Of a DNA stretch of 64,000 bases, positions 2,462 to 53,847 are shown piece by piece. Below the pieces are notes generated by a model. The model was not told the DNA's origin, made no database searches, and saw nothing but the letters and a program-made list of their open reading frames with translations. Source of the DNA: Candidatus Harrisonbacteria bacterium (GTDB lineage Bacteria; Patescibacteriota; Minisyncoccia; UBA6257; 02-FULL-45-10c); the NCBI GenBank assembly GCA_016192685.1, contig JACPTS010000001.1:394628-458627 (forward strand). The letters are read 5' to 3'. Both the position numbers and the translations under genes were made by a program. Position 1 is the stretch's first letter, and each line of letters begins with the position of its first letter.

Positions 2462-3430
2462 ATGCAAAGACTTCTATTTATATTTTGGACCAGTATCAGC
2501 TTAGTCATCGCCTTATTTTTATTTTTTCTTGGTTCGGCCGCGGCTAATTCGGATTATCGTTCGGTGGAAATTTTGCCCGGTACCGGTTTTAAAGAAATTG
2601 CCGGGCTGTTAGAAAACCAAAAAATCATCCGTTCCAGAAACACCTTTTTGATTTATGGAATTTTATCCGGTTCGGCGCATCAGTTAAAGCCGGGAAATTA
2701 TTTATTAAGCGCCGGTTCCAGCACGCCAGCCATTGTTTTGTCATTAACCCGCGGGCCGGAAATTGATAGAGAAATCACTTTTCCGGAGGGGGTAACTTTA
2801 AAAGATATTGACACGATGCTTGCCAGAGAAAAAATTTTGCCGGCCGGAGCGCTGATTAATCTCAATAAATCCAGAGATAAAGGATTAGAAGGATTTTTAT
2901 TTCCTGATACTTATAGGTTTTTTATAAATAGCAATACGGAGCAAGCAGTAAGGAAATTTTTGGATAATTTTGAAAAAAAAGCCGTCCCGCTGTTGGGGAA
3001 GTGTCTAGTATCAAGCGGCAAGTGTCAAGAATTATTAACCATTGCTTCTTTATTGGAAAAGGAGGCGCCGGAGTTTAGAGACAGGCAGATAATCGCTGGC
3101 ATTATTTATAAAAGATTGGAAGCCGGCATTGCTTTGCATATTGATGCCACTATTACTTACGCTAAATGTGGCGGCGCGTTTTTAACTTGCGATGACCCGA
3201 AAGTTTATCGTAAAGATTTAGATTTTCAATCAAGGTACAATACTTATCTATATAACGGCTTGCCGCCCGGACCAATCGGCAACCCGGGCTTAGAAGCGAT
3301 TAAAGCCGCGCTAAATCCCATTAAGTCGGAATATCTTTATTATCTTTCCGACCCGAAAACCAAAAAAACCATTTTCAGCCAAACTTTAGAAGAACATATT
3401 GAGAATCGGGCGAAATATTTAGGGGTTTAA
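2462..3430 (+). CDS. mltG: endolytic murein transglycosylase MltG (YceG family)
   Basis: N-terminal TM, YceG-like domain and a C-terminal GLPPGPIGNPG signature. Confidence 0.8.
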   Translation: MQRLLFIFWTSISLVIALFLFFLGSAAANSDYRSVEILPGTGFKEIAGLLENQKIIRSRNTFLIYGILSGSAHQLKPGNYLLSAGSSTPAIVLSLTRGPEIDREITFPEGVTLKDIDTMLAREKILPAGALINLNKSRDKGLEGFLFPDTYRFFINSNTEQAVRKFLDNFEKKAVPLLGKCLVSSGKCQELLTIASLLEKEAPEFRDRQIIAGIIYKRLEAGIALHIDATITYAKCGGAFLTCDDPKVYRKDLDFQSRYNTYLYNGLPPGPIGNPGLEAIKAALNPIKSEYLYYLSDPKTKKTIFSQTLEEHIENRAKYLGV

Positions 3431-3488
3431 TAAAAAGCCATGTGAGTAAGTTGTGGATAATTCAATATTTTAAAGCTATCCGCAATGC

Positions 3489-3517
3489 TTGACAGAAAAT
3501 TAGTAGTGCGCTATAAT
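3489..3517 (+). promoter_or_regulatory. near-consensus sigma-70 promoter upstream of rpoB
   Basis: TTGACA, 17-nt spacer, TATAAT. Confidence 0.6.
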
Positions 3518-3663
3518 ATTACTTACGTGTTTTGTATACAGAAATTAGCCGTTTTTTAGAGGGGTGGTTTTTATTTATTCTGGATAATTAATTTTATTTT
3601 TTACGGAGGTCTTAGTCTCTAGGAAAATTTATTTGCTAAAAAATAATTTTTCCAATTTTTAAA

Positions 3664-6600
3664 ATGCCAAAACTTCCAGCCAAAGTTTTTTCTAGCCATC
3701 CGGGCGCTTTAATGGCCCAGCCAAATTTGGTAGAAATTCAAACCAATTCCTATAACTGGTTTTTAAATAACGGTTTGAAAGAGCTTTTTGAAGAAGTGTC
3801 GCCAATCAAAGATTATACCGGAAAAGACTTAGAGCTGCATTTTAAGGATTTTTATTTTGATGAGCCGAAATATGACGAAGAATATTCCCGCTATAAAGAT
3901 CTGACTTATGAATCGGCTCTTCGGGTGAAGTTTCAACTGATAAATCGAAGGACGAAAGACAAAAAAGAGCAGGAAGTTTATCTTGGCGATTTTCCGGTGA
4001 TGACTTCCCGCGGCACTTTCATTATTAATGGGGTGGAGCGGGTAGTAGTTTCCCAGCTAATCCGCTCTTCCGGGGTTTACTTTACCGCCAATGTTTGGAA
4101 GGGGCGGAAGCTTTTTGGAGCTAAAATAATTCCGAATCGCGGAGTTTGGATTGAATTTGAAACCGATGCCGACGGTTTAATTGGCGTTAAAATTGACCGT
4201 AAGCGCAAAGCTCCCGCTACTGCCATGCTTAGAATTTTCGGATTGGAGGATAACGCGGAAATCGCGGACACTTTTAGCGATGTTGATACCGGAGAAATAA
4301 AATATCTTCAGACTACGCTTAAAAAAGATTCCGCCAAATCAGCCGACGATTCGTATATTGAAATTTATAAAAGAATCCGGCCGGGAGATTTGGCCACGCC
4401 GGAAAATGCCAAAAGTTTGATTGACGCCATGCTTACCCGGTTTGACCGCTATGATTTATCGCAAGTCGGAAGATTTAAAGTCAATCAGCGGCTCGGCCTG
4501 AACAGCCAAAATCGGATGCTGGAGCTTCAGGATATCATTGCTATTTTAAAAGAAGTGATTCGTTTGAATAATAATCAGTCGGTTGAGCCGGATGATATAG
4601 ACCATTTGGGTAATCGCCGGGTGCGGCCGGTGGGAGAACTTCTGCAAAATAAACTCCGGGTGGGGCTGGCCAGAATGCGGCGCATTGTTCAGGATAGAAT
4701 GTCCACTTTAGACATTAATACCCTGTCGTCAGTGCAGCTGGTTAATTCCCGGCCGATTGTTTCGGTGGTAAAAGAATTTTTCTCTTCTTCCCAACTTTCT
4801 CAATTTATGGATCAGGTGAATCCGCTGGCGGAATTGGAGCATAAACGGAGAATTTCGGCTATGGGCCCCGGCGGTTTAACCCGTGAACGGGCTGGTTTTG
4901 AGGTGCGTGATGTGCATAGTTCCCACTATGGCCGGATTTGCCCGATTGAAACTCCGGAAGGATCCAATATCGGCTTGGTGAATCATTTAGCCGGCTATGC
5001 CCGGGTGAATGAGCTCGGATTTTTGGAGACGCCCTACGTTGCCGTTGAAAAAGGAAAGATAACTTCTAAAATTGTCTGGCTGAATGCTTTAGAAGAAGAA
5101 AAATATAAAATTGCCCACGCGGGTGTGCCATTTAATCCGGAAACCAAAGAAATTATTCCTGAAGTGGTGGGCGCCAGAATTAACGGCGAGCCGGGCACCT
5201 GCTTGAAAAGCGAGGTGGATTTTATTGATGTGGCGCCAAATCAATTAATCAGCATTGCCACCGCCTTAATTCCTTTTTTGGAGCATGATGATGCCAACCG
5301 GGCTTTGATGGGTTCTAACATGCAGCGGCAGGCAGTGGTTTCAATAATGGCGGAAGCTCCCTATGTCGGTACGGGCATGGAAGAAAAGGCGGCGCGCGAC
5401 TCCGGGCATCTGCTTTTAGCCGAGGCGGCGGGAGAAATAACCGCGGTGGATGCTAATCGTATAATTCTTAAAACCAAATCAGGAGCGAAAAAATATGTTT
5501 TAAATAAATTCAAACGGTCTAACCAGTACACCTGTATTTCTCAGCGGCCGCTGATCAGTCGCGGCCAAAAGGTTAAAAAAGGAGAAGCGCTGGCTGACGG
5601 TCCCTCCATGGAAAACGGCGTTCTGGCCCTTGGCCAGAATTTAGTGGTGGCTTTTGTTCCTTGGGAAGGGGCTAACTTTGAAGACGCTATTGTGCTTTCC
5701 GAACGGGCAGTTCAGCGCGATAAATTCACCTCAATCCATATTGAAGATTTTTATATTGATGTCCGGGATACCAAGCTTGGTCCGGAACTTACCACTCCGG
5801 ATATTCCTAATGTTTCTGAGGAAAAGTTGAAGAATTTGGATGAGGAAGGAATTATCCGGATTGGCGCCGAAGTGCGCTCCGGCGATATTTTAGTCGGTAA
5901 AATTTCTCCCAAAGGCGAAAGCGAGCTGACCGCGGAAGAAAGATTGCTTCGGGCAATTTTCGGCGAGAAAGCCCGAGACGTAAAAGATACTTCTTTATCC
6001 ATGCCGCACGGAAAATTCGGCCATGTGGTCGGCATTAAGATTTTTGACCGGGAGCGCGGCGATAAGCTGGAGCCGGGAATTATCAAGCGGGTGCAGGTGG
6101 AAGTTGCCCAGCTTCGGAAGGTGATGGCGGGCGATAAATTAGCCGGCCGCCATGGCAATAAGGGCGTTATTTCCCAGGTGCGTCCGATAGAAGATATGCC
6201 TTATCTGGAAGACGGGACGCCGGTGGATATTGTTTTAAATCCGCTTGGCGTTGCTTCTCGTATGAATTTAGGCCAGGTTTTAGAAACTCATTTGGGATGG
6301 GCAGCGGCGAAACTCGGCTATCGCGCTTATACGCCGGCGCTTTCCGGCGCCAGCTGGCAGCAAATTCAGGAGGAGCTGGAAAAAGCCGGTTTGCCGAAAT
6401 CCGGAAAAGTGAAATTGCATGACGGACGGACCGGCAAGCCATTCCATCAAGAAGTGACGGTCGGCGTTATTTATATGATGAAGCTTAATCATTTAGTGGA
6501 AGATAAAATTCATATGCGTTCCATCGGCCCGTATTCTTTAATTACGCAGCAGCCGCTGGGCGGCAAAGCGCAGTTTGGCGGCCAGCGTTTCGGCGAAATG

Positions 6601-6848: not shown

Positions 6849-9800
6849 ATGGATAATTTAAAAGCCTTAAAACTAAAAATTGCTTCTCCGGACGACATTT
6901 TAACTTGGTCGCATGGGGAAATTATTAAGCCGGAAACAATTAATTACCGCACTCAACGGCCGGAAAAAGACGGCCTTTTCTCGGAGAGAATTTTCGGCCC
7001 GACCAAGGACTGGGAATGTTATTGCGGAAAATACCGGCGTATCCGTTATAAGGGTATTGTTTGTGACCGCTGCGGAGTGGAGGTTACCCGTTCTATCGTG
7101 CGGCGCGAGCGGATGGGGCATATAAAGCTCGCGACGCCGGTTTCTCATATCTGGTTTTTACGCAGCGCGCCTTCCAAATTAAGCTTGGTTTTGGATGTGC
7201 CGGTGCCTAAGCTGGAAAAAGTTGTTTATTATATTTCTTATATTATTACCGCCGTTAATGAGGATAATCGGGAACGGGTTCTTAAGGAATTGGAAAAAGA
7301 ATTTGATTCCCGGAAAAAGACTGCCCGTAAGGAAGGGGTGAAGACTGCCGATTTGCGTTCCGGCCTTTCGGAAAGCAAAAAGGAGGTGGAATATTTAAAA
7401 ACCGGAGCGATTTTAAGCCAGATGGAATTTCATCATTTAGCCAGAAAATACGGCGATGTTTTTGAAGCCGGCACCGGAGCCGAAGCCCTGCGGAAAATTT
7501 TGGAAGAAGTTAATTTAGAGAAATTAGTCAAACAAGTGGAAAAAGAACTGGAAACTAACAAAGACAATCTTCGGGAGCGCCGGCTTTTAAAGCGCCTTAA
7601 GCTGGCCAAATCCATGCTTAAAGAAAAAATGAGGCCCGAATGGATGATTTTGACTACTTTGCCGGTGTTGCCGCCGGATTTGCGCCCGATGGTGGCTTTG
7701 GATGGCGGCCGCTATGCCACTTCTGATTTAAACGATCTTTACCGCCGGGTTATCAATCGGAATAACCGGTTAAAGAAACTTTTGGAATTAAACGCTCCGG
7801 AAGTGATTATCACTAATGAAAAAAGGATGCTCCAAGAATCAGTGGATGCTTTATTTGATAACTCGGTTCGTTTTGGGACTCAGCAAATGTCCAGCCAGCG
7901 CCGCCCGCTTCAATCCTTATCAGACCAGCTAAAGGGAAAAACCGGCCGTTTCCGGCAAAATCTGCTTGGAAAACGGGTAGATTATTCCGGCCGCTCGGTA
8001 ATCGTTATTGGTCCGGATTTGAAAATCAATGAGTGCGGTTTGCCCAAAAAAATGGCTTTGGAACTTTTTAAGCCGTTTGTGATTAATAAAATTATTGAAC
8101 GGGGACTGGCCCATAATATCAGGAATTCCAACAGGCTGATTGAGCAGGCGCCGCCGGAAATTTGGGCAATTCTGGAAGAGGTGATTGCGGACCGCAAAGT
8201 GCTTTTAAACCGGGCGCCGACCCTGCATCGCCTTGGTGTTCAGGCTTTTAAGCCGGTTTTGATTGAAGATTTGGCGATTCGGATTCCGCCGATGGTCTGC
8301 ACGGCTTTTAACGCGGACTTTGACGGCGACCAAATGGCGGTGCATTTGCCGCTTTCGGCGGAAGCCCAGAAAGAAGCATCGGAAATTATGCTTTCCAGCC
8401 ACAATCTTTTAAAACCCGCCACCGGCGACCCGATTGTTTATCCAACCCAGGATATCATTCTCGGGATTTATTTCTTAACTAAAATTAATAAAAACGGCAA
8501 AGGGGCCGGTTTGAATTTTGCCAGTCCGGAAGAAGCCAATGTAGCTTATGAAAACGGCATAATTGACGTTAACTCGCCAATCCAGACGGTTTGGAATGGC
8601 GGAAAGCTGGAAACTTCTTATGGCCGGATTCTTTTCAACAGCGTTTTGCCGGAAGGGCTCGGCTTCATTAATAAAATGTTCCGCAAGAAAGATGTTACTG
8701 TGCTGGTTGGAGAAATTATTCATCGATATGGCAATGAGGATTCCGGCAAGTATTTGGACGCGATGAAAAAGCTGGGATTTGAGTATGCCACCCGTTCCGG
8801 AATCACTTGGTCAATGAGCGATTTAACGACACCAAGCGAAAAGCCGGCGATGCTCGTCAAAGCCGAACAGGAAGTGGCGGCTATCCGCCAGCAGTATGAA
8901 GAAGGATTGCTTACGGATTCGGAGCGGCGAGCCAGAGTTTTAAGCGTCTGGGAAAAAGTAAAAGAAGCCGTCAGTAAATTAGTTCCTCAATCTTTGTCGG
9001 AACATAACCCGATTTATTCCATCATTGATTCGGGGGCGCGGGGAACCTGGTCTCAGCCGGTGCAGATGATTGGCATGAAAGGTTTGGTGGCTAATCCTAA
9101 AAACGAAACTATTGAATTGCCGATTAAATCTTCGTATAAAGAAGGGCTTTCGGTGCTGGAATTTTTCATTAATACCCATAGCGCCAGAAAAGGAACCACC
9201 GATACCGCTTTAAAAACCGCTTCAGCCGGCTACTTAACCCGGCGCTTAGTTGATGTCTCGCAAGATTTAGTCATTAGAGAAGAAGACTGCAAAACTAAAG
9301 AAGGGATTGAGATTGCCAGGGCGGAACGGGAGCAGTTCGGATTAGATTTCGGCGACCAATTATTTTCCAGAACGGCATTGGAAGATATTAAGATTGACGG
9401 GAAGACCCTGATTAAATCCGGAGAGGTTATTGACAGAGAAACCGCCAATCTTTTTAAAGCTTCCAAGGTTGAGATGGTAAAAGTGCGTTCCCCGATTGTC
9501 TGCCGAACTCTATATGGCGTTTGCTCCAAGTGTTATGGTTTTGATCTCGGTAATAATCAGCTGATTAAGCCCGGATCGGCAGTGGGCATTGTGGCCGCCC
9601 AATCTATCGGAGAGCCGGGAACACAGCTGACCATGAGAACTTTTCATACCGGCGGCGTGGCCGGAACCGATATTACCCACGGTTTGCCGCGGGTAGAAGA
9701 GATTTTTGAATGCCGGCCGCCGAAAGGGCGCGCGTTTTTGGCGGAAGATGACGGAGTGATTGACGGCATTGAAGAAAAAGGACTTTTAAAAAATATTCGG

Positions 9801-10438: not shown

Positions 10439-10864
10439 ATGGATAAAGATAAAGAAAAAAAAGAGTATGAGATTGCGATTCTCGCAAAAATGCCGGAGGT
10501 ATCTGCCGTAACAGATATTTTGAACCAATATCGGGCGGAAATATTTTATCAGAGCCCGGTTACTGAAGTTCGGCTAGCTTATCCGATTAAAAAACAACGG
10601 CAGGCTTATTTTGGCTTTTTTCAATTTCGGGCAGAACCGGAAGCCGTGGAAAAAATCCAGCAGGCCCTAAAGCTCAATTCGTCAATTTTAAGATTTTTGG
10701 CGGTTTCTTCGCCGATTAAAAAATCAGAAAAATTGCAACGCCCAGCCGCGGAAATAAAATATTCCCGGAGCAAACCGGAGCCAGCGGCGGCTGAAAGCGT
10801 GCCGCTCGGCGGAATTTTAACCAATGAAGCTTTGGAAGAAAAGTTAGAAGAAATACTTAAATAA
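10439..10864 (+). CDS. rpsF: 30S ribosomal protein S6 (with acidic C-terminal extension)
   Basis: N-terminal S6-like fold pattern (YEIAIL...RLAYP). Position in the conserved rpsF-ssb-rpsR arrangement. Confidence 0.6.
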   Translation: MDKDKEKKEYEIAILAKMPEVSAVTDILNQYRAEIFYQSPVTEVRLAYPIKKQRQAYFGFFQFRAEPEAVEKIQQALKLNSSILRFLAVSSPIKKSEKLQRPAAEIKYSRSKPEPAAAESVPLGGILTNEALEEKLEEILK

Positions 10865-10869
10865 ATGTT

Positions 10870-11295
10870 ATGAATCTCAATAAAGTATTTATTTTAGGAA
10901 GATTAACCGTTGATCCGCAGCTGCGATCTACCGCCAGCGGCCAGCAAGTAGCGAGTTTTGGCGTTGCTACTAATCGGGTTTGGAATGATAAAAGCGGCCA
11001 GCGCCAAGAGGCGGTTGAATTCCATAATGTGGTAGTTTGGGGCAGGCAAGCGGAAGTGGCCAGCCAATATTTAACCAAAGGCAGTTTAGTTTTAGTTGAG
11101 GGCAGGCTGCAAACCAGGGATTGGGAAGGAAAAGACGGCCAAAAACGAAGGACTACCGAAATTATCGGAGAAAGAATCCAATTGGGGCCGAAGCCGTTTG
11201 GCAAAAGCGTTAAAGAAAATCCGGCTCCGGATTCTTCAGTCCCCACTGTTAATTTAGATGAAGGAGAAATTAAATCGGAAGACCTCCCCTTTTAA
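10870..11295 (+). CDS. ssb: single-stranded DNA-binding protein
   Basis: OB-fold SSB sequence with the acidic C-terminal tail ending DLPF. Confidence 0.9.
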   Translation: MNLNKVFILGRLTVDPQLRSTASGQQVASFGVATNRVWNDKSGQRQEAVEFHNVVVWGRQAEVASQYLTKGSLVLVEGRLQTRDWEGKDGQKRRTTEIIGERIQLGPKPFGKSVKENPAPDSSVPTVNLDEGEIKSEDLPF

Positions 11296-12075: not shown

Positions 12076-13836
12076 ATGAAAATTTGCTGGTGTGACGGCT
12101 GCAAAAAAGAAGAACTGAACCGGCTTAAGAGCGAGATTAAAAAGCTTCAAGAAGAAATAAAGGAGTTGGAAGAAGCTAATCAGGACGATAAAGCTTTGAT
12201 TAGGATTTTGATGAAAAGGATAAGAAAGTTGGAAAAAGCAGTATCGGAATTGGCGGAAAGGGCGCAGCATTATAAAAATAGCGTTGCTAGGCTGTCGGAA
12301 AGGGCAAAGCGTCCGCCCTGCGGCTACGCTATTTTTGTCCGTCCGCATCCCGGCGGCGAGCCGGATGAGGTTGATGTGCTGGATGGCGGCCATCTTAAGA
12401 AGGTGGCGCTCGCCATGTCTGATATTACTGCCAAGGATTTGAAATGCGGTTGGGAAGTTTTACTGAATGCGAAAGATAATGTGGTGGAGGTGACTAAAAA
12501 TTATTGGTCGTGGGGATCGGAAGTAATTTTTAAAGAGCGTTTAAGCGAGGATATTGCTTTAGTAATGAGTGAAGTGGATAGCGTCCAGCAATGTTTTTTA
12601 AGCCCAGAATTAAAAAATGTTCAATTAAAGTCCGGCGATTCTTTATTGAATTGCGGCGGCCTGCTGGTGAAGATTCTCCCGAAAACCGAAGAGAAAGATC
12701 ATGATTTGGAAGAGGTTCCGGATTTGGACTTTTCTAAGGTTGGCGGATTAGCCAAGCAAATCGCCGAAATTGAAGAGGCGTTGGCTCCTTTTGCGGATCG
12801 CGAGGTGTATATAAAAGAAGCTAAAGGCCAGGATATGCCTCGGGGCATTTTATTGGATGGGCCTCCCGGTTGCGGCAAGACGCTTCTTGCCAGGGTTATT
12901 GCTTCTAATTTAGCCAAGCACCGCGGCCTTAAAGGTTATTTTATGGCCCTGACCAGTACCGAGCTTATCAATAAATATGTCGGAGAAACCGAAAGAAAGC
13001 TCCGCGAATTATTCAATCGGGCGAAAGAAAAATCCGGCGAAGGCAATTTGGTAGTCATTTTTATTGATGAAATTGACGCTTTGGTTCGGAGTCGGGATTT
13101 TGCCATGGATAAGGAGCCGTGGAAAGGCGATACAGTCGCGCAATTCTGCGGGCTCTTGGACGGCATTACGCCGTTGGGCGATATTATCGTTATCGGAGCG
13201 ACCAATCATAAAAATTTGATTGACCCGGCTATTTTAAGGCCCGGAAGAATGACGGTGCAGATTACGGTGCCGCGGCCGAATCGGAAAGGCGCCGAGGAGA
13301 TTTTGAGGATTTATTTGGCCCCGGATTTGTCATTTGGGCAGAAATATTTTCAAGATGATTTGTATGAGTACCTTGACCATTTTGGCAGCGGCAAGAAAGA
13401 AATTGCCGAGCTTAATAAAAATCCGGAAAAGGTGCGCGATCATTTCTTAGACATGGTCATCAAAAGAATTTTCTATAAAGGCAATCCGCTGGAAATAGTT
13501 TTGGGCGAGGGCACGGAAGATGAAGAGGTTTTAAAGATTGACAATAAAATTGAGGTTATGAATGAGCATCAGCTGCTTAAGACTTACCTCAAGGATTGGG
13601 TATCGGGCGATATGCTTAAAAATATCGTGGAAAAGGCGAAGCGCATCGCTTTTACCCGTTGGCTTCGGAAGAGGAAACAGGATCCGGCTGTCAAATATGA
13701 ATTAACTAAGAAAGATTTTTTTCTGGCTGTTGATGCCGAATATCAAAGAATTGTTTCTTCGGTGAAGGCCCCGAAACAAGCGGCGGAAAAGAAATATGAA
13801 ATAGGATTTAAAAGTAAAGAAGAGAAAAATGAATAG
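12076..13836 (+). CDS. AAA+ ATPase of the ARC/Mpa (proteasome-associated ATPase) type
   Basis: N-terminal coiled coil, OB-like inter-domain, Walker A GPPGCGKTLLAR and Walker B VIFIDEIDAL. Sits upstream of dop-pup. C-terminus ends ...EEKNE with no GQYL-like docking motif. SD AGGAG 8 nt upstream. Confidence 0.65.
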   Translation: MKICWCDGCKKEELNRLKSEIKKLQEEIKELEEANQDDKALIRILMKRIRKLEKAVSELAERAQHYKNSVARLSERAKRPPCGYAIFVRPHPGGEPDEVDVLDGGHLKKVALAMSDITAKDLKCGWEVLLNAKDNVVEVTKNYWSWGSEVIFKERLSEDIALVMSEVDSVQQCFLSPELKNVQLKSGDSLLNCGGLLVKILPKTEEKDHDLEEVPDLDFSKVGGLAKQIAEIEEALAPFADREVYIKEAKGQDMPRGILLDGPPGCGKTLLARVIASNLAKHRGLKGYFMALTSTELINKYVGETERKLRELFNRAKEKSGEGNLVVIFIDEIDALVRSRDFAMDKEPWKGDTVAQFCGLLDGITPLGDIIVIGATNHKNLIDPAILRPGRMTVQITVPRPNRKGAEEILRIYLAPDLSFGQKYFQDDLYEYLDHFGSGKKEIAELNKNPEKVRDHFLDMVIKRIFYKGNPLEIVLGEGTEDEEVLKIDNKIEVMNEHQLLKTYLKDWVSGDMLKNIVEKAKRIAFTRWLRKRKQDPAVKYELTKKDFFLAVDAEYQRIVSSVKAPKQAAEKKYEIGFKSKEEKNE

Positions 13837-13858: not shown

Positions 13859-13924
13859 ATTCCCTTGTATTCTCGTTGGCGGTAGTTTAAAATAGGTTCA
13901 AGTTCTTTGAAAGAGCGGAGGGCT

Positions 13925-15388
13925 ATGGCAATTCCGAAGCTGTGCGGCATTGAAAATGAATTTGGATTTTCTGTTTTTGACGCGGCCGGTAAGCAATTAG
14001 GGAGTGATGGCTATTTGGAGGCGGCGCATCGCTTTGTGGCTTATTTTCTGGCGCACGAAAAAGCCATTCGTTACGATCCGGCGAAGGAATCTCGGCGGCG
14101 CGATACCGACGGAGACGACGAAGAAGAATCGGAAACTTTATTTGAGCGGACGCACCGGCGGCTTACTGAAAGTCTTACAACGGGAACTGACGGTTTTTTG
14201 GCAAATGGCGCGCGGTTTTATTTGGACGCGCACCATCCGGAATATTCCACGCCGGAATGCTTGACCCCGCTGGAATTAGTTGCTCATGATAAAGCGAGCG
14301 AGCTGGTGATGCTGGAGGCGGCGCATTTATTTTCGCGTCAGCTGGCCGGCAATCGGCATCGTATATTCGTCCATAAAAATAACAGCGATGGCAATGGCCA
14401 CAGTTACGGTTGCCATTTAAATGTCCTTTTAAAGCGGGAATTGGTAAGCGGCAATTTTAAATATCTGGTAAAGCAGTATATTCCGTTTCAAATCAGCAGG
14501 ATTATTCTGATTGGGGGCGGGAAGCTGGGGGCGGAGAATAATCGGCCCGTCTGCCAATTTCAAATTTCCCAGCGAGCGGATTTTTTTGAAAAGTTGGTTA
14601 GCCAGAATACGGTTGAAAATCGCCCGATTTTCAATACCCGAGACGAGCCGCACGCGGACCCTAAAAAATATTTTCGCCTTCACGATATTTCCACCGATTC
14701 TTTGGTGTGCGAACAGGCCATTTTTCTTAAAGCGGCGCTTAGCCAAGTTGTGCTGGCGATGATTGAAGACGGATTTTTAAAAGACAATGTTTTGCCTAAA
14801 AATCCGGCAGAGGCGATGGCGCGCGTATCCCGCGACCTTTCGTTTAAAGACGGACTTCTGTTGGAAACCGGCAAAAAAATGACCGGCTTAGAAATATTGC
14901 GCCATTATCTGACGCAAAGTAAAAAATATCTGGCTGAACATCCCATGAGCGATCAGCATATTTTAGCGGTTGACCAGGCGCTGGGACTGCTTAATCAATT
15001 GGAAGAAAATCCGCTGGCAACTGCCGGAAAATTAGATTGGACTACCGCTTGGAAAATCGCCGAAAGCCGGCCAGCTCAAGCCAAGCAAAACCTTTTGGCT
15101 TTTAGGGAAATTTACCCCCGCGGATACTACCGGGAATTGGTTAAAAGAGGAAAAATATGCCGTCTGGTAAGCGATGAAGAGATTGCGCGGGCTAAGTTAA
15201 GCCCGTCAATTAATACCAGGGCTTATTTAAGAAGCGAGATGATTAAAAAATTCGGTTTAACGATACGCGATATGAGCTGGTCTCTTTTCTCGGTAAAAAT
15301 CGGCCAACGGCTAAAAGTCCTGGAGGCGGATAACCCCCTTCTTGCAAAAGCGGAAGCGGATATGCTATTATCAAATTTAGAAATTTGA
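13925..15388 (+). CDS. dop: Pup ligase/deamidase family enzyme (Dop-like by position, immediately upstream of pup)
   Basis: N-terminal CGIENEFGF (the GIETEYG motif), NGARFYLDAHHPEYSTPEC and GCHLN blocks characteristic of PafA/Dop carboxylate-amine ligases. Start placed at the ATG preceded by GGAGGG (the ORF track starts 18 nt earlier). Confidence 0.75.
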   Translation: MAIPKLCGIENEFGFSVFDAAGKQLGSDGYLEAAHRFVAYFLAHEKAIRYDPAKESRRRDTDGDDEEESETLFERTHRRLTESLTTGTDGFLANGARFYLDAHHPEYSTPECLTPLELVAHDKASELVMLEAAHLFSRQLAGNRHRIFVHKNNSDGNGHSYGCHLNVLLKRELVSGNFKYLVKQYIPFQISRIILIGGGKLGAENNRPVCQFQISQRADFFEKLVSQNTVENRPIFNTRDEPHADPKKYFRLHDISTDSLVCEQAIFLKAALSQVVLAMIEDGFLKDNVLPKNPAEAMARVSRDLSFKDGLLLETGKKMTGLEILRHYLTQSKKYLAEHPMSDQHILAVDQALGLLNQLEENPLATAGKLDWTTAWKIAESRPAQAKQNLLAFREIYPRGYYRELVKRGKICRLVSDEEIARAKLSPSINTRAYLRSEMIKKFGLTIRDMSWSLFSVKIGQRLKVLEADNPLLAKAEADMLLSNLEI

Positions 15389-15409: not shown

Positions 15410-15622
15410 ATGGTTCCGGAAGAGGAGCGGAAGAAAAAGAAAGATAAGAAAAAGAAGAAACCAGGCGATCCGGAAGAGGAAGAAGAGGAGAAGGAATCCG
15501 ACGAGGATGAAGAGTTAAAAAAAGACCTTGAAAGCGATGATATTGGAGACATTTTGGACGATTTGAAGAGCACTCAACCGGAGCAAATTCCCGATGAATT
15601 CCGCCAAAAGAGCGGACAATAA
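15410..15622 (+). CDS. pup: prokaryotic ubiquitin-like protein Pup
   Basis: 70-aa disordered acidic protein with C-terminus DIGDILDDL...DEFRQKSGQ, matching the Pup C-terminal helix and ...QKGGQ tail. Located between dop-like and pafA-like genes. Confidence 0.8.
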   Translation: MVPEEERKKKKDKKKKKPGDPEEEEEEKESDEDEELKKDLESDDIGDILDDLKSTQPEQIPDEFRQKSGQ

Positions 15623-15723: not shown

Positions 15724-16866
15724 ATGCCAGACCGGCTCTGCGGAAAAGAACAAGAGTACGGCATGAGAATTTTACCCACAAAGAAATTCATCGCTTCTCT
15801 GCCTCAGGGGATTTTACTCCCCCCGGAACATCTGGAATATTACTTAAAAGAAGATAGTTTTACTGATTGGAGACGCGGTTTTGCGCAAGCAATTATCAGC
15901 AATATTATGAATTCTAAAATTCCAAATTTTTCTAATGGCAGCGATCGAATTTGGCTTGCTAATGGGTCGCTGATTTATATTGACCTTAAATGTATTGTAG
16001 AAACGGCAACCGCCGAATGCCGCGCCGGATCCCTGGACGGATTATTGCAGGAAAAAGCCTCTGAGCTGATTCTTAATGAAGCCGCGCAATCGGTCGTGGC
16101 GCAGCGCGGCATTGAATCGCTTACTTTGTATAAAAATAACGTCGGCCCTTCCGGCTTGGGGGAAGACAGATTTAACGAAGTAACGTATGGGAGCCATCAT
16201 AATTATTCTTATCTTGAGTCCAAACAGGTGGCTGTATTCCAGGTATTGAAGAGTTTTCTTCCGGTTTCTATTATTTTTAGCGGCAATGGGCACGTGTACA
16301 AGCATAGAAATAATATAATGTACGCGCTTTCTCAAAGGGCGTCTCACATTACGCTGGCGCAGTCGGGAGCGACGTTGGATAATCGAGCTATCGTGACTAC
16401 GCGGGATGAATCGCTTATGGACAGGTCAACCGGCTTAAGCCGCCTGCATTTAATTTCGCGGGATGCCACGCGCTGTGAATTTCAGACGTGGCTGGTGGAT
16501 ACAATCACTCATTTAGTATTAAGACTGGCGGAAGAGGGGTGGAAATTGCCTTTAAATTTATCGCTTAGCGGCCCAGTCACGGAAATGCACGCCATTAATT
16601 TATCACTGGAGGTTAATTTAGATTATAAAGCGGCCTGCTGGCCGTTTGGGGTTAATAGGATAGATATTTTTGAGTATAACAAGATTTTTTTGGATGCCGC
16701 TAAACAGCTTAGTCCGCTCTCCGAACCAGAAAAACTCTGCCTCCAAGAATGGGAAAGAGTTTTAGAGCTCCTGAAAGCCAGAGCTTTTGACCAGCTGGTG
16801 GGAGAATTAGATTGGGTAACTAAATGGTGGCTGCTTAAGAAAAAAATGAGCAAATATTTTAGATAA
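15724..16866 (+). CDS. PafA/Dop-family paralog, C-terminally truncated (ends just after the conserved ELDWVTKWW block)
   Basis: LCGKEQEYG N-terminal motif, NGSLIYIDL..ETATAEC and TYGSHHNYSYL blocks. The final ~250 nt contain two tracts identical to the next paralog. A degraded C-terminal-domain remnant continues in the +1 frame after the stop. Confidence 0.65.
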   Translation: MPDRLCGKEQEYGMRILPTKKFIASLPQGILLPPEHLEYYLKEDSFTDWRRGFAQAIISNIMNSKIPNFSNGSDRIWLANGSLIYIDLKCIVETATAECRAGSLDGLLQEKASELILNEAAQSVVAQRGIESLTLYKNNVGPSGLGEDRFNEVTYGSHHNYSYLESKQVAVFQVLKSFLPVSIIFSGNGHVYKHRNNIMYALSQRASHITLAQSGATLDNRAIVTTRDESLMDRSTGLSRLHLISRDATRCEFQTWLVDTITHLVLRLAEEGWKLPLNLSLSGPVTEMHAINLSLEVNLDYKAACWPFGVNRIDIFEYNKIFLDAAKQLSPLSEPEKLCLQEWERVLELLKARAFDQLVGELDWVTKWWLLKKKMSKYFR

Positions 16867-17109
16867 AATTCTATATATCAATTGGGACGCGGTGTACTTG
16901 CAAGGCAATCCGCCTAAACATTACCCGACCGGAGAGACTGGCAATCCTTTCGCCGCCGTCAGTTCTTCGTTGGAAAATTTGTATAAAGAATTAGGATTAG
17001 CGGCCGATTAAAAAATTTATCCTCGTTAGGCGAGGATTTTTTAATTGATAAAATTAATAATTTGCCTTATATTAAAATGAGCTTCTTAAAAAAATAACAG
17101 AGAAAGAAA

Positions 17110-18201
17110 ATGCAGAAACGTCTTTGCGGCCGCGAGCAAGAGTTTGGAGCTAAGATTATCCTTTCTTCCGGGGGCCTCAGAAAATTAAAACTAGGTACGC
17201 GAGCAGATGTTATCTGTAAAATAATAAGTTTAATTGCCGATGTTGTTCCGGCAGTAACTTTTAACGACAGCAGCAGTGATTATTGGCTTTGCAACGGCTC
17301 AAGGGTTTATTTGGATATGGATTCGGTAGAAACTTCAACTGCCGAGCATCTTGCCGGTTCTTTTGACGGGATAGCTCAGGAGAAAGCTCTGGAGTTAATT
17401 CTTAATAAGGCGGTTCAATCAATAATACGGTCAAAAATAGGGTTAGAGTCTGTTGCCCTTTACAAGAATAATGTTTGGCTTCAAAAAGAAGATGGTCGTT
17501 TTCAGGAGGAGACTTACGGAAGCCACCACAATTACTCTTATTTAACTAAAAAACGGGAGAGGGTTTTCGGGTTAATGAAAAATTTTATTCCCGCCGCCCT
17601 GCCATTAACCGGGAATGGGCATGCGCTTGGCTTAAGGTCGGGACAGTTCGTTTATTGTTTGTCCCAAAGGGCAAGGCACATCATTTTAGTCAAGCATGAT
17701 GATACTTCTTCCGTGCGGCCGATTATCAATCTTCGCGATGAGCCTTTAATGAATGAATCAACCGGCTTAAGCCGCCTGCATTTAATTTCGCGGGATGCCA
17801 CGCGCTGTGAATTTCAGACGTGGCTGGTGGATACAATCACTCATTTAGTATTAAGACTGGCGGAAGAGGGGTGGCAGTTGCGGCCAAGTTTGGTTTTGGA
17901 AAGGCCGCTGGCGGAGCTGCATCATCTGAATTTTAAATTTGATTTGAATTACGAATTAAAGACTGCCTCCTGTGCCATGGATGTCGTTGATTACAATTAT
18001 CTTTTTTTGCGTGCCGCGGAGAAATTAAAGCCTCTCTCCGAACCAGAAAAACTCTGCCTCCAAGAATGGGAAAGAGTTTTAGAGCTCCTGAAAGCCAGAG
18101 CTTTTGACCAGCTGGTGGGAGAATTAGATTGGGTAACTAAATGGTGGCTGCTTAAGAAAAAAATGAGCAAATATGCTTCTGGAAGCAGAAGGAAAGATTA
18201 A
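17110..18201 (+). CDS. PafA/Dop-family paralog, N-terminal catalytic part (frameshifted gene)
   Basis: LCGREQEFG, NGSRVYLDMDSVETSTAEH and TYGSHHNYSYL. Nucleotides 17760-17880 and 18030-18170 are identical to paralog 15724..16866. Confidence 0.65.
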   Translation: MQKRLCGREQEFGAKIILSSGGLRKLKLGTRADVICKIISLIADVVPAVTFNDSSSDYWLCNGSRVYLDMDSVETSTAEHLAGSFDGIAQEKALELILNKAVQSIIRSKIGLESVALYKNNVWLQKEDGRFQEETYGSHHNYSYLTKKRERVFGLMKNFIPAALPLTGNGHALGLRSGQFVYCLSQRARHIILVKHDDTSSVRPIINLRDEPLMNESTGLSRLHLISRDATRCEFQTWLVDTITHLVLRLAEEGWQLRPSLVLERPLAELHHLNFKFDLNYELKTASCAMDVVDYNYLFLRAAEKLKPLSEPEKLCLQEWERVLELLKARAFDQLVGELDWVTKWWLLKKKMSKYASGSRRKD

Positions 18202-18472
18202 GCATCTTGTCTCCAAAGAAGACATCAAAAAAGCCATTCTCACTCCGCCGGAGACAAGGGCTAAGAGCCGGGGGAAGTTTATAAAAGCTTGTTTTAAAAA
18301 TCCCGGGTTGGCAAAACGGGTTAGGGAATTTAATTGGGGCAGCGCGGCAATCTACGATAAAATTATTTATTTCGGAGAAATAAATAATCCTTTTTCCGTT
18401 TCCACGGTTGTGGAGAATGGCTGGCCTTTTTTAAGGCCCGGGATAGATTACAGACCGTTACGGCATTTTTAA
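18173..18472 (+). CDS. C-terminal domain of the PafA/Dop paralog, encoded in the +1 frame (split or frameshifted)
   Basis: LLEAEGKIKHLVSKEDIKKAILTPPETRA aligns with the PafA/Dop C-terminal domain (...RLVSDEEIARA...TRA in the upstream Dop-like gene). Overlaps the end of 17110..18201 by 29 nt. Confidence 0.55.
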   Translation: MLLEAEGKIKHLVSKEDIKKAILTPPETRAKSRGKFIKACFKNPGLAKRVREFNWGSAAIYDKIIYFGEINNPFSVSTVVENGWPFLRPGIDYRPLRHF

Positions 18473-18512
18473 TCTTTGGCTAAAAATCCTAAAATCTATT
18501 ATATTTCTCGTA

Positions 18513-18541
18513 AAAACCTGCTGTATTCAGCAGGTTTTTTA
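18513..18541 (+). terminator. rho-independent terminator
   Basis: AAACCTGCTGtattCAGCAGGTTTTTT. Confidence 0.7.
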
Positions 18542-51946: not shown

Positions 51947-52094
51947 TTGCAAAAATAAAATACTCCAACAAGCGGAGTATTTTATTTTTGCGGTGTCTGT
52001 TTGAAAATATCCGAACGGAACTCTCTGGGCTCGGCGGGCGGAATTCCCCCCACACCCCCCTTCCGCCCGCCTCGCTTTGAACCGGAGCGGAAAG
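51947..52094. repeat. left copy of a 149-bp terminal inverted repeat (contains a bidirectional terminator hairpin and a GC-rich palindrome)
   Basis: Reverse complement of 53701-53847 matches with one mismatch. Includes AAAATACTCCaacaagcGGAGTATTTT and GGCGGGCGGAAttccccccacaccccccTTCCGCCCGCC. Confidence 0.85.
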
Positions 52095-52127
52095 GACGAT
52101 TTCAAGTTTTTCTTTGGCGGCAAATTC

Positions 52128-52674: not shown

Positions 52675-53349
52675 TTATTCCAAATCGCTTTTCCCGATAT
52701 TGCACTTTGAGCAAAGCGTTTGTAAATTTTCTAAAACTGTTTCTCCGCCATTTGCCCACGCCTTGATATGGTCAACATGAAGAATGATAGTCGGGTCTGT
52801 CGCGGGCGATCTCCCGCAATTTTTACATTTGAAATTATCACGCCTCATAACAATAAATCGCAACCTCCAATTTATCGTCCGTGGTGTTTTGTGTTGAGCA
52901 GGAAATTCAGCCCTCTCAATTTTCTTGATTGATTCTTCAGAAGTAGCACCTTCTTCGCTATTTACATATTCAACAAAACGCTCTAACGCTTTACGCCAGC
53001 CACCAAAACGATTTTCATAAGTCCCAACATGAAATTTTGAAAGCGGCTTCTGCACTTCTTGATAGCGAGGTTGTCGTCCAAGTTTTATCCATACTTCCTC
53101 TAAATTCTTAAACAATTCTTCTTCCGGAACATTCGGAGAAGTTCTTGTTTTTTGCAGCCCCGCTTTTTTTAATGCGTCAAACCAGCTTCCAAACCGTCGA
53201 AGTTGGGTTGTGCTGTGATATTTCCCGTTAGTATCATATTCTTCTCGCGTAACGGAATCCTTGTTGAGTTTTTTGGCAACAACTTTTAAATCCTCTATAA
53301 GAGATTCATCAGATACATTTCGGTTGTAATCGTCTAGTTCAAATTTCAT
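52675..53349 (-). CDS. HNH endonuclease with an N-terminal domain carrying a duplicated FG.W..AL motif
   Basis: C-terminal HNH motif CKNCGRS...HVDHIKAWANGGETVLENLQTLCSKCN. Internal repeats RFGSWFDALKKAG and RFGGWRKALERF. Confidence 0.75.
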   Translation of the reverse strand: MKFELDDYNRNVSDESLIEDLKVVAKKLNKDSVTREEYDTNGKYHSTTQLRRFGSWFDALKKAGLQKTRTSPNVPEEELFKNLEEVWIKLGRQPRYQEVQKPLSKFHVGTYENRFGGWRKALERFVEYVNSEEGATSEESIKKIERAEFPAQHKTPRTINWRLRFIVMRRDNFKCKNCGRSPATDPTIILHVDHIKAWANGGETVLENLQTLCSKCNIGKSDLE

Positions 53350-53560: not shown

Positions 53561-53700
53561 ATTTTGATAGTATAAAAATATGTTATACTTTTACTTGTAT
53601 GATTATCATATCTAATTTTTTGATTTTGTTCAAGAAAAGCCCGCTTTTGGCCTTCATAAAGTTCGAGTCGACATTTTTGACAGGCTCTTTGGCAGTTTGC

Positions 53701-53847
53701 CTTTCCGCTCCGGTTCAAGGCGAGGCGGGCGGAAGGGGGGTGTGGGGGGAATTCCGCCCGCCGAGCCCAGAGAGTTCCGTTCGGATATTTTCAAACAGAC
53801 ACCGCAAAAATAAAATACTCCGCTTGTTGGAGTATTTTATTTTTGCG
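53701..53847. repeat. right copy of the 149-bp terminal inverted repeat. Its outer end coincides with the 3' end of tRNA-Ser(TGA)
   Basis: See the left copy. The outer terminus ...TTTTGC sits directly against the discriminator position of the minus-strand tRNA-Ser. Confidence 0.85.

Follow-up and report, generated by a model that had tools for sequence, protein, structure and literature searches.

Gene conversion between two tandem PafA-like paralogs in a Pup/UBact-type gene cluster of Candidatus Harrisonbacteria, and a shared frame break that probably originates from assembly

Two tandem PafA-like paralogs of a Candidatus Harrisonbacteria genome repeatedly exchange sequence by gene conversion, a real process that affects the central region where they are best conserved, and the break of the reading frame that both copies share at the edge of a conversion tract is probably a scaffold-join artefact of metagenome assembly rather than a biological feature. 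The solid result is a modest one, namely a CPR lineage with a Pup/UBact-type cluster and two tandem PafA-like ligases whose central regions evolve in concert. All positions given below refer to the forward strand of the window, i.e., of the whole 64-kb stretch of DNA that was analysed, and all features lie on this strand.

The source organism is a tiny groundwater bacterium belonging to a CPR lineage. The genes follow one another in the order Mpa-like AAA ATPase, Dop-like paralog 1, small tag protein with a C-terminal GQ, and paralogs 2 and 3, a tandem pair of PafA-like genes; the best explanation of the locus is a tagging cluster of the Pup/UBact type that is conserved in Harrisonbacteria/Parcubacteria. 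The Mpa/ARC-like ATPase (12076–13836, 586 aa; Pfam AAA and Prot_ATP_ID_OB_N) is present in all syntenic loci and reaches 308 bits against the NCBIfam model pup_AAA, which is below the equivalog cut-off. Paralog 1 (13907–15388, 493 aa) is a full-length member of the Pup_ligase family (Pfam PF03136, positions 1–438 of 441, E = 1.6e-106). It is closest to Dop, with 316 bits against the Dop model (TIGR03688) vs. 258 bits against the PafA model, both scores being below the NCBIfam equivalog cut-offs (492 bits for Dop TIGR03688, 551 bits for PafA TIGR03686). The next gene encodes a small acidic Pup/UBact-like protein of 70 aa ending in ...FRQKSGQ (15410–15622), for which orthologous ORFs of 64–71 aa can be found in 9–10 loci; their C-termini read ...GQ or ...GE, in most cases ...RQK(S/P/G)G(Q/E). 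The protein shares the defining traits of Pup and UBact (small size, disorder, C-terminal G-[Q/E], gene beside those for Dop and PafA) and matches no Pfam or NCBIfam model, Pfam Pup included; its dN/dS against the 88% identical relative L001 is 0.03. Gene calls in the syntenic neighbourhoods that were read include none for proteasome subunits.

Paralogs 2 and 3 are present as N- and C-terminal parts in different frames. The N-terminal part of paralog 2 as assembled (15724–16866, 380 aa) covers Pfam positions 1–359 of 441 and is 84% identical at the amino acid level to the intact 501-aa L001 orthologue P0006. The N-terminal part of paralog 3 (17110–18201, 363 aa, NCBI MBI3046317, 100% identical to P0001) matches the same family up to position 360 of 441. 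Their PF03136 scores are 171 and 156 bits, respectively, and the separate 99-aa C-terminal part of paralog 3 (18173–18472, +1 frame, NCBI MBI3046318, P0072) scores 27 bits (cut-off 25) over positions 390–432 of 441 and 88 bits over positions 398–478 of the clade HMM. Profile positions 361–389 are absent as assembled, the rest of the profile lying in the +1 frame; N- and C-terminal domains are not on one polypeptide here, as they are in all orthologues. The motifs of the active-site cradle are in place and aligned to the PafA/Dop positions, with the G-x-E-x-E strand as LCGREQEFG / LCGKEQEYG and the NG-x-x-x-Y-x-D motif as NGSRVYLD / NGSLIYID. Against the PafA model TIGR03686, P0006 and P0003, both full-length orthologues, reach 200 and 141 bits; the Dop model follows closely with 183 and 137 bits. 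By their sequences they are PafA-like, PafA identity not being demonstrable with scores below the 551-bit cut-off. Terminator-like hairpins are located past the ancestral stop codon of paralog 2 (17019–17037) and past paralog 3 (18512–18539).

Outside the conversion tracts, paralogs 2 and 3 are only ~55% identical (range ~40–65%). Within them, 117 nt are exactly the same at 16426–16542 (paralog 2) and 17758–17874 (paralog 3), and so are 141 nt at 16717–16857 and 18034–18174, both copies of this second tract ending at the break; 47 codons in a row are identical, third positions included. Such identity is far beyond chance. Furthermore, at the sites within the tracts where the window differs from L001, both paralogs of each genome carry the same substitution. 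These genome-specific shared substitutions, together with exact tracts in diverged flanks, identify the process as gene conversion. Its extent varies among the relatives, with an identical run of 641 nt between the paralogs of L002 and none in L003, L006 and L007. The original prediction of gene conversion in this genome is thus borne out and extended to other genomes, and its two identical tracts are real, with limits corrected to those given above.

The ORF of paralog 2 ends at 16866 and that of paralog 3 at 18201, in each case soon after ...ELDWVTKWWLLKKKMSKY. The two frames break at one shared nucleotide, with which the 141-nt tract ends, and homology to the C-terminus resumes in the +1 frame; coordinates and HMM matches agree with the earlier description of C-terminal domains displaced into that frame, in paralog 3 at the edge of a conversion tract. 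The lesion is, however, no simple point frameshift as had been supposed. As revealed by BLASTN against L001 and direct reading, the paralog 2 junction (16857–16858) lacks 221 nt of the orthologue (L001 11132–11352, with an ambiguity of 1 nt) and the paralog 3 junction (18174–18175) lacks 86 nt relative to the intact L001 orthologue, both gaps beginning at the same base. The C-terminal part of paralog 3, which had been called intact, is indeed an open +1 ORF, but the 86 nt upstream of it are gone. The 29 aa missing there belong to a confidently folded, well-ordered region, and among them are the Y, H, I and S of an invariant YHxIS motif. In paralog 2, only a deleted remnant is left, as originally described: it extends from LDKILYINWDAVYLQG to ...LGLAAD and a stop codon (16859–17011, +1 frame, recognised by homology to L001), is 86% identical at the amino acid level to the C-terminus of L001 paralog 2, and matches clade HMM positions 442–489 alone (ORF span 16850–17008). 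At the paralog 3 junction, TAT joined to GCT creates the ATG of the 99-aa ORF, with GAG 5 nt upstream. Both displaced pieces remain open reading frames without stop codons, and dN/dS values against L001 (0.15 for the N-terminal part of paralog 2, 0.21 for that of paralog 3, 0.23 for the remnant) give no sign of relaxed selection. An A7 run, earlier considered a possible cause, also sits in the intact L001 gene, which rules out a homopolymer sequencing error; AGA and AGG, taken for a rare-codon pair, are each used ~8 times per 1000 codons here, so a rare-codon shift site can be dismissed as well. Direct reading revealed no microhomology at either junction, ruling out a microhomology-mediated deletion.

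Comparison with orthologous loci, which had been recommended alongside the prediction, revealed full-length paralogs 2 and 3 (475–520 aa) in all five other syntenic genomes in which both genes are complete, and none shares the break. The arrangement of split paralogs seen in the window was found in no other genome, and neither the metagenome nor the genome collections contained a match to the 36-nt left-flank pattern. Exact look-ups of the proteins of the window in the contig index likewise gave no entry. When the 99-aa ORF was used as a protein query, the sole hit was the ORF itself, with no closer orthologue of paralog 3 that would display the ancestral junction. Other lesions do exist: paralog 3 is truly frameshifted in L008/L009 (with an identical 1-nt deletion in both assemblies) and has an N-terminal frame break in L007, and L019 paralog 1 carries an in-frame TGA near the same region. 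Besides that, the independent assemblies of L001, L020 and L042 break inside the same tract, L001 paralog 3 being cut by a contig end inside tract 2.

On this sequence evidence, we favour the view that the shared break was produced during scaffolding, since in both copies it lies exactly 141 nt into a repeat, a length equal to the default final k of MEGAHIT; the contig name k141_2132810 fits this value. The identical run preceding the breaks is exactly 141 nt in both copies, and the tract is the only exact repeat of at least 141 nt in the window. In a de Bruijn graph with k = 141, both contigs entering the repeat would stop after exactly 141 nt of it. During scaffolding, each of them would then be abutted to the next contig with a wrongly estimated overlap, so that 221 and 86 nt would be dropped and no Ns inserted; the IDBA-UD scaffolder presumably trims negative estimated distances without checking the overlap. 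In the organism, both genes would be intact single ORFs of ~490–500 aa, as in close relatives. The genome appears to come from a study, apparently BioProject PRJNA640378, in which assembly with MEGAHIT v1.2.9 at default settings was followed by IDBA-UD scaffolding, with curation at the bin level only. The proteins of the window are NCBI MBI3046316–18, annotated as three separate proteins of a Candidatus Harrisonbacteria MAG (608-kb scaffold), and their accession series is that of the NC_groundwater sister MAG JACROC01; the window thus appears tied to this pipeline through accession series and organism name rather than through its own record. A scaffolding origin is further supported by the open state of the displaced pieces, their dN/dS values, the full-length genes of relatives and the other assemblies breaking inside the tract, and it resembles known misassembly at repeat boundaries and scaffold joins in the position of the break k nt into a repeat, the lack of Ns and the related contigs ending in the same repeat. 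On the other hand, distances would have to be misjudged by as much as 86 and 221 nt, more than in typical join errors, and the lesions in L008/L009 show that true disruption of paralog 3 occurs. Widespread scaffolding damage can be ruled out, as the gene map is otherwise normal (90% coding) with no other split genes in the window. The offsets of the contig ends in L001 and L020 (55 and 99 nt) were dropped as additional k-mer signatures, a reading that would need the k values of these assemblies. If the break is an artefact, exact paralog tracts as long as or longer than the assembler k can make genes in MAG scaffolds appear truncated or split.

Alternatively, the deletions may truly have occurred, and recently, leaving both PafA-like paralogs as pseudogenes, as had been considered from the beginning; this is a serious but distinctly less probable explanation than a scaffold join. 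One copy would have been deleted first and would later have served as the template of a conversion or repair event. This event would end where homology ends, i.e., at the first junction, and be sealed by illegitimate joining, so that the second copy would gain a deletion whose left breakpoint is the same. The deposited sequence does contain the deletions, and NCBI annotation follows it. The disruptions of paralog 3 in L008/L009 and L007 imply that the gene is seemingly dispensable at times, and the products without the 29 aa would probably be inactive because the invariant Y, H, I and S are lost from a confidently folded region. However, real deletions require that the left breakpoints coincide and, in addition, are placed at exactly position 141 of the tract (a coincidence of about 1 in 200), come with junctions that lack microhomology, and are at odds with the open displaced parts and the lack of relaxed selection. 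It would also be odd for both ligases to be lost from a cluster whose ATPase, Dop-like gene and tag are under strong constraint.

It is improbable that paralog 3 works as a split ligase, in which the N-terminal domain (363 aa) and the separate 99-aa piece associate in trans, the latter possibly serving the truncated paralog 2 as well. The ATG gained at the deletion junction and the intact 99-aa ORF do exist, and a domain-swapped PafA dimer involving the C-terminal domain has been reported (PMC12053664). In addition, paralog 3 of L008/L009 consists of two ORFs near the same region, where paralog 1 of L019 has its in-frame TGA. A working two-polypeptide enzyme with a start codon acquired through deletion, paralleled by these other splits, is nevertheless doubtful: the break does not coincide with a domain boundary and removes 29 aa of the N-terminal domain with the invariant YHxIS, most of the C-terminal domain of paralog 2 is gone, including the PPxTRA core, and the three cases are different lesions at different sites, as expected for damage rather than design, the arrangement of the window being unique to this genome. 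A real and functional break would make this the first split enzyme of the Pup ligase family, which the evidence does not favour. Still further from the evidence is programmed +1 ribosomal frameshifting, proposed to give a fused paralog 3 within the 29-nt overlap (18173–18201): a +1 overlap holding AGA AGG is present between TGA 18164–18166 and TAA 18199–18201, but these codons are ordinary here, no known shift-prone motif is found, paralogs 2 and 3 are single ORFs wherever else they are complete, with no conserved shift site, L008/L009 shift elsewhere, and the fused product would still lack the 29 conserved residues, making this explanation extremely improbable.

The cluster resembles the actinobacterial mpa-dop-pup-prcB-prcA...pafA cluster in its order of an AAA ATPase with an OB domain, a Dop-like protein, a small disordered acidic tag with G-Q/E and a PafA-like protein, and P0006 and PafA of C. 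glutamicum (PDB 4B0T) align over their full lengths. It differs in that no proteasome-subunit genes were called in the neighbourhoods read, in two tandem PafA-like paralogs instead of one PafA, in scores that are all far below the NCBIfam equivalog cut-offs, and in a tag that ends in SGQ/SGE/PGE in most loci rather than in GGQ/GGE and has no Pfam Pup match. To our knowledge, a duplicated ligase and concerted evolution do not figure in the description of the UBact system. This system of Gram-negative and candidate phyla, reportedly described by Lehmann et al. in BBRC in 2017, is said to be similar in having, outside Actinobacteria, a Pup-like tag with a basic-x-G-Q/E C-terminus between Dop-like and PafA-like genes and an adjacent Mpa homologue. 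The details of the present cluster should be useful for research on pupylation-like tagging outside Actinobacteria.

Bacterial paralogs are known to evolve in concert by RecA-dependent gene conversion, as do tufA/tufB in Salmonella and rRNA operons. Paralogs 2 and 3 follow the tufA/tufB type in their mosaic of exact tracts on conserved segments and in the substitutions shared by both copies, in several lineages. Unlike there, only internal segments of 117–641 nt are homogenised here, whereas each paralog keeps a sequence of its own in the N-terminal third and at the extreme C-terminus.

The Pup_ligase-family genes of the window lie in a + strand cluster comprising an upstream PAP2 gene, an AAA ATPase gene with a proteasomal-ATPase OB domain (12076-13836), the full-length paralog 1, which is closest to Dop (13907-15388), an acidic 70-aa ORF ending in FRQKSGQ (15410-15622), paralog 2 (15724-16866), paralog 3 (17110-18201), a 99-aa ORF in the +1 frame (18173-18472) and, 3' of it, tRNA-Leu, parB, relA/spoT and topA. 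The window proteins correspond to NCBI MBI3046316-18 of a Candidatus Harrisonbacteria MAG (608-kb scaffold). The order PAP2, AAA, Pup_ligase 1, small ORF, Pup_ligase 2, Pup_ligase 3, ParB, RelA, TopA can be found in at least six other genomes (full order in the related loci L001, L002, L003-5, L006/L010, L007 and L008; in L011 and L019, the Pup-ligase cluster alone is seen). Where the contig permits, paralogs 2 and 3 are each encoded by one uninterrupted ORF of 475-520 aa (exceptions: L008/L009, L007). L001 is ~88% identical to the window over the entire locus, and its intact paralog 2 (P0006, 501 aa) can be aligned over the full length with PafA of C. glutamicum (PDB 4B0T). The small ORFs of related loci terminate in ...GQ or ...GE (majority ...RQK(S/P/G)G(Q/E)) and resemble the tag ends of Pup/UBact. 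The last residue is Q in the window, L001, L017 and L019 and E in L002, L003, L006, L007, L008 and L011, which implies that the need for deamidation varies within the clade. No gene of the proteasome-subunit Pfam families was called beside the Mpa/Dop/tag/PafA-like genes in the 20-kb neighbourhoods of the syntenic loci L001-L008; the tagging system may dispense with a 20S core or rely on one that is encoded elsewhere.

The PafA-like paralogs 2 and 3 share two exact runs, tract 1 (16426-16542 = 17758-17874, 117 nt) and tract 2 (16717-16857 = 18034-18174, 141 nt), in a background of ~40-65% identity. In a four-way alignment with paralogs 2 and 3 of L001, orthologues group together outside the tracts (75-95% versus 40-65%), and inside them the substitutions between the window and L001 are common to the two paralogs of each genome. 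Window paralog 2 is of paralog 3 type over the second half of tract 1. The predicted gene conversion is thus borne out by exact tracts in a diverged background and by genome-specific substitutions common to both copies. The two genes evolve in concert through repeated and continuing conversion that is seeded where conservation is highest, and the mosaic is confirmed as an ordinary, if neat, case of this. In L002, paralogs 2 and 3 are perfectly identical over 641 nt (9082-9722 = 10622-11262); either the genes underwent a large conversion very recently, or the assembler placed one repeat consensus twice. No identical run between the two paralogs was present in L003, L006 and L007.

Both ORFs stop a few codons past tract 2, and the displaced pieces match the C-terminus of the family; exact runs, ORF ends and C-terminal matches confirm the coordinates and +1 displacement of the original prediction. 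Compared with L001 paralog 2, 221 nt are absent from window paralog 2 (...MSKY to LLNKIMYINWD) and 86 nt from paralog 3 (...MSKY to LLEAEGKIKHLV). Directly after the break, 108 nt of paralog 3 match paralog-2-type sequence at 86% identity, indicating that the conversion tract formerly extended to ...GKFI. The 29 aa missing from paralog 3 include Y379, H380, I382, S383 and S389 (numbering of the full-length orthologue P0003), invariant in 22 clade sequences. In the AlphaFold model (pLDDT 86, pTM 0.89), this segment is confidently ordered and forms helix 370-379, the YHxIS turn and the start of helix 390-396; by alignment to 4B0T, it belongs to the N-terminal domain, upstream of the C-terminal domain (start at ~residue 408). 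In paralog 2, the C-terminal domain has additionally lost its PPxTRA core.

The frame displacement is probably an artefact of scaffold joining. The breaks of both paralogs fall at the same nucleotide, and tract 2, exactly 141 nt up to the break, is the sole exact repeat of at least 141 nt in the window. The default final k of MEGAHIT is 141, and a contig named k141_2132810 is found among the related contigs. In a k=141 graph, a contig entering the repeat would end with the first shared 141-mer, which would account for the length of the run as well as for the breakpoint that the two copies share. A scaffolder abutting contigs on a mis-estimated negative distance, as IDBA-UD may do, would lose sequence at the join without placing Ns; the window contains no Ns. 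Contigs of independent related assemblies terminate in tract 2 as well (L001 end, 12575; L020 end, 7084; L042 start), showing that the repeat breaks assemblies. According to accession series and organism name, the source genome appears to belong with the NC_groundwater MAGs, which were assembled using MEGAHIT v1.2.9 with default parameters followed by IDBA-UD scaffolding, only bins being curated (He et al. 2021). The dN/dS values against L001 for the parts of paralogs 2 and 3 and the remnant (0.15-0.23) are as low as that of paralog 1 (0.20), and both displaced C-terminal pieces remain open reading frames.

Recent pseudogenisation through real deletions is a less likely alternative. These genes are sometimes damaged in nature, as indicated by a common 1-nt deletion splitting paralog 3 of L008 and L009 ~10 codons downstream, an N-terminal catalytic strand in another frame in L007 paralog 3 and a TGA that interrupts L019 paralog 1 in frame in this region. 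However, a biological deletion would fall at exactly 141 nt into the tract with a chance of roughly 1-in-200, and a special mechanism would be required to strike both copies at one base. A functional split ligase is improbable: neither the type nor the site of the lesions agrees between genomes, a pattern more in keeping with decay or error than with design. Programmed frameshifting has next to no probability. The A7 run noted at the break is also present in the intact L001 gene, and AGA AGG, taken for a rare-codon pair, consists of codons ordinary here.

The split in L008 (6928-6950) and L009 (1258-1280) yields ORFs of 380 and ~113 aa; the deletion (AGCCCGG-TGCC versus L006) costs zero residues, and the sequence is identical between the ENA MEGAHIT contig and the JGI contig. 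In L007 (7665-7740), the displaced strand (MQKRLVGREQEFGIEIK) lies within an A-rich stretch, and the first 16 residues of paralog 3 are those of that genome's paralog 2, perhaps as a result of conversion at the N-terminus. The TGA of L019 (3915-3917; ORFs 2691-3914 and 3918-4163) falls at the position of the conserved Gly in the ...RG(K)I.RLV motif, close to the domain-boundary region of the window break; the terminal stop is also TGA, and the in-frame one could be an error, a pseudogene mark or recoding. The architecture of L016 (262-3415) is odd: two ORFs overlap, one of 474 aa in which the clade ligase HMM hits the C-terminal half only, and a ligase ORF of 620 aa that carries a large insertion.

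Elsewhere in the window, a 147-nt inverted repeat (51949-52095 / 53700-53846; 127 nt exact) flanks a cassette of an HNH homing endonuclease (52675-53349; PF18780 and PF01844) and a 179-aa ORF of unknown function, located between a P-type ATPase gene and tRNA-Ser/tRNA-Ala. This repeat provides second copies of the ATPase gene's 5' end and of a terminator-like hairpin.
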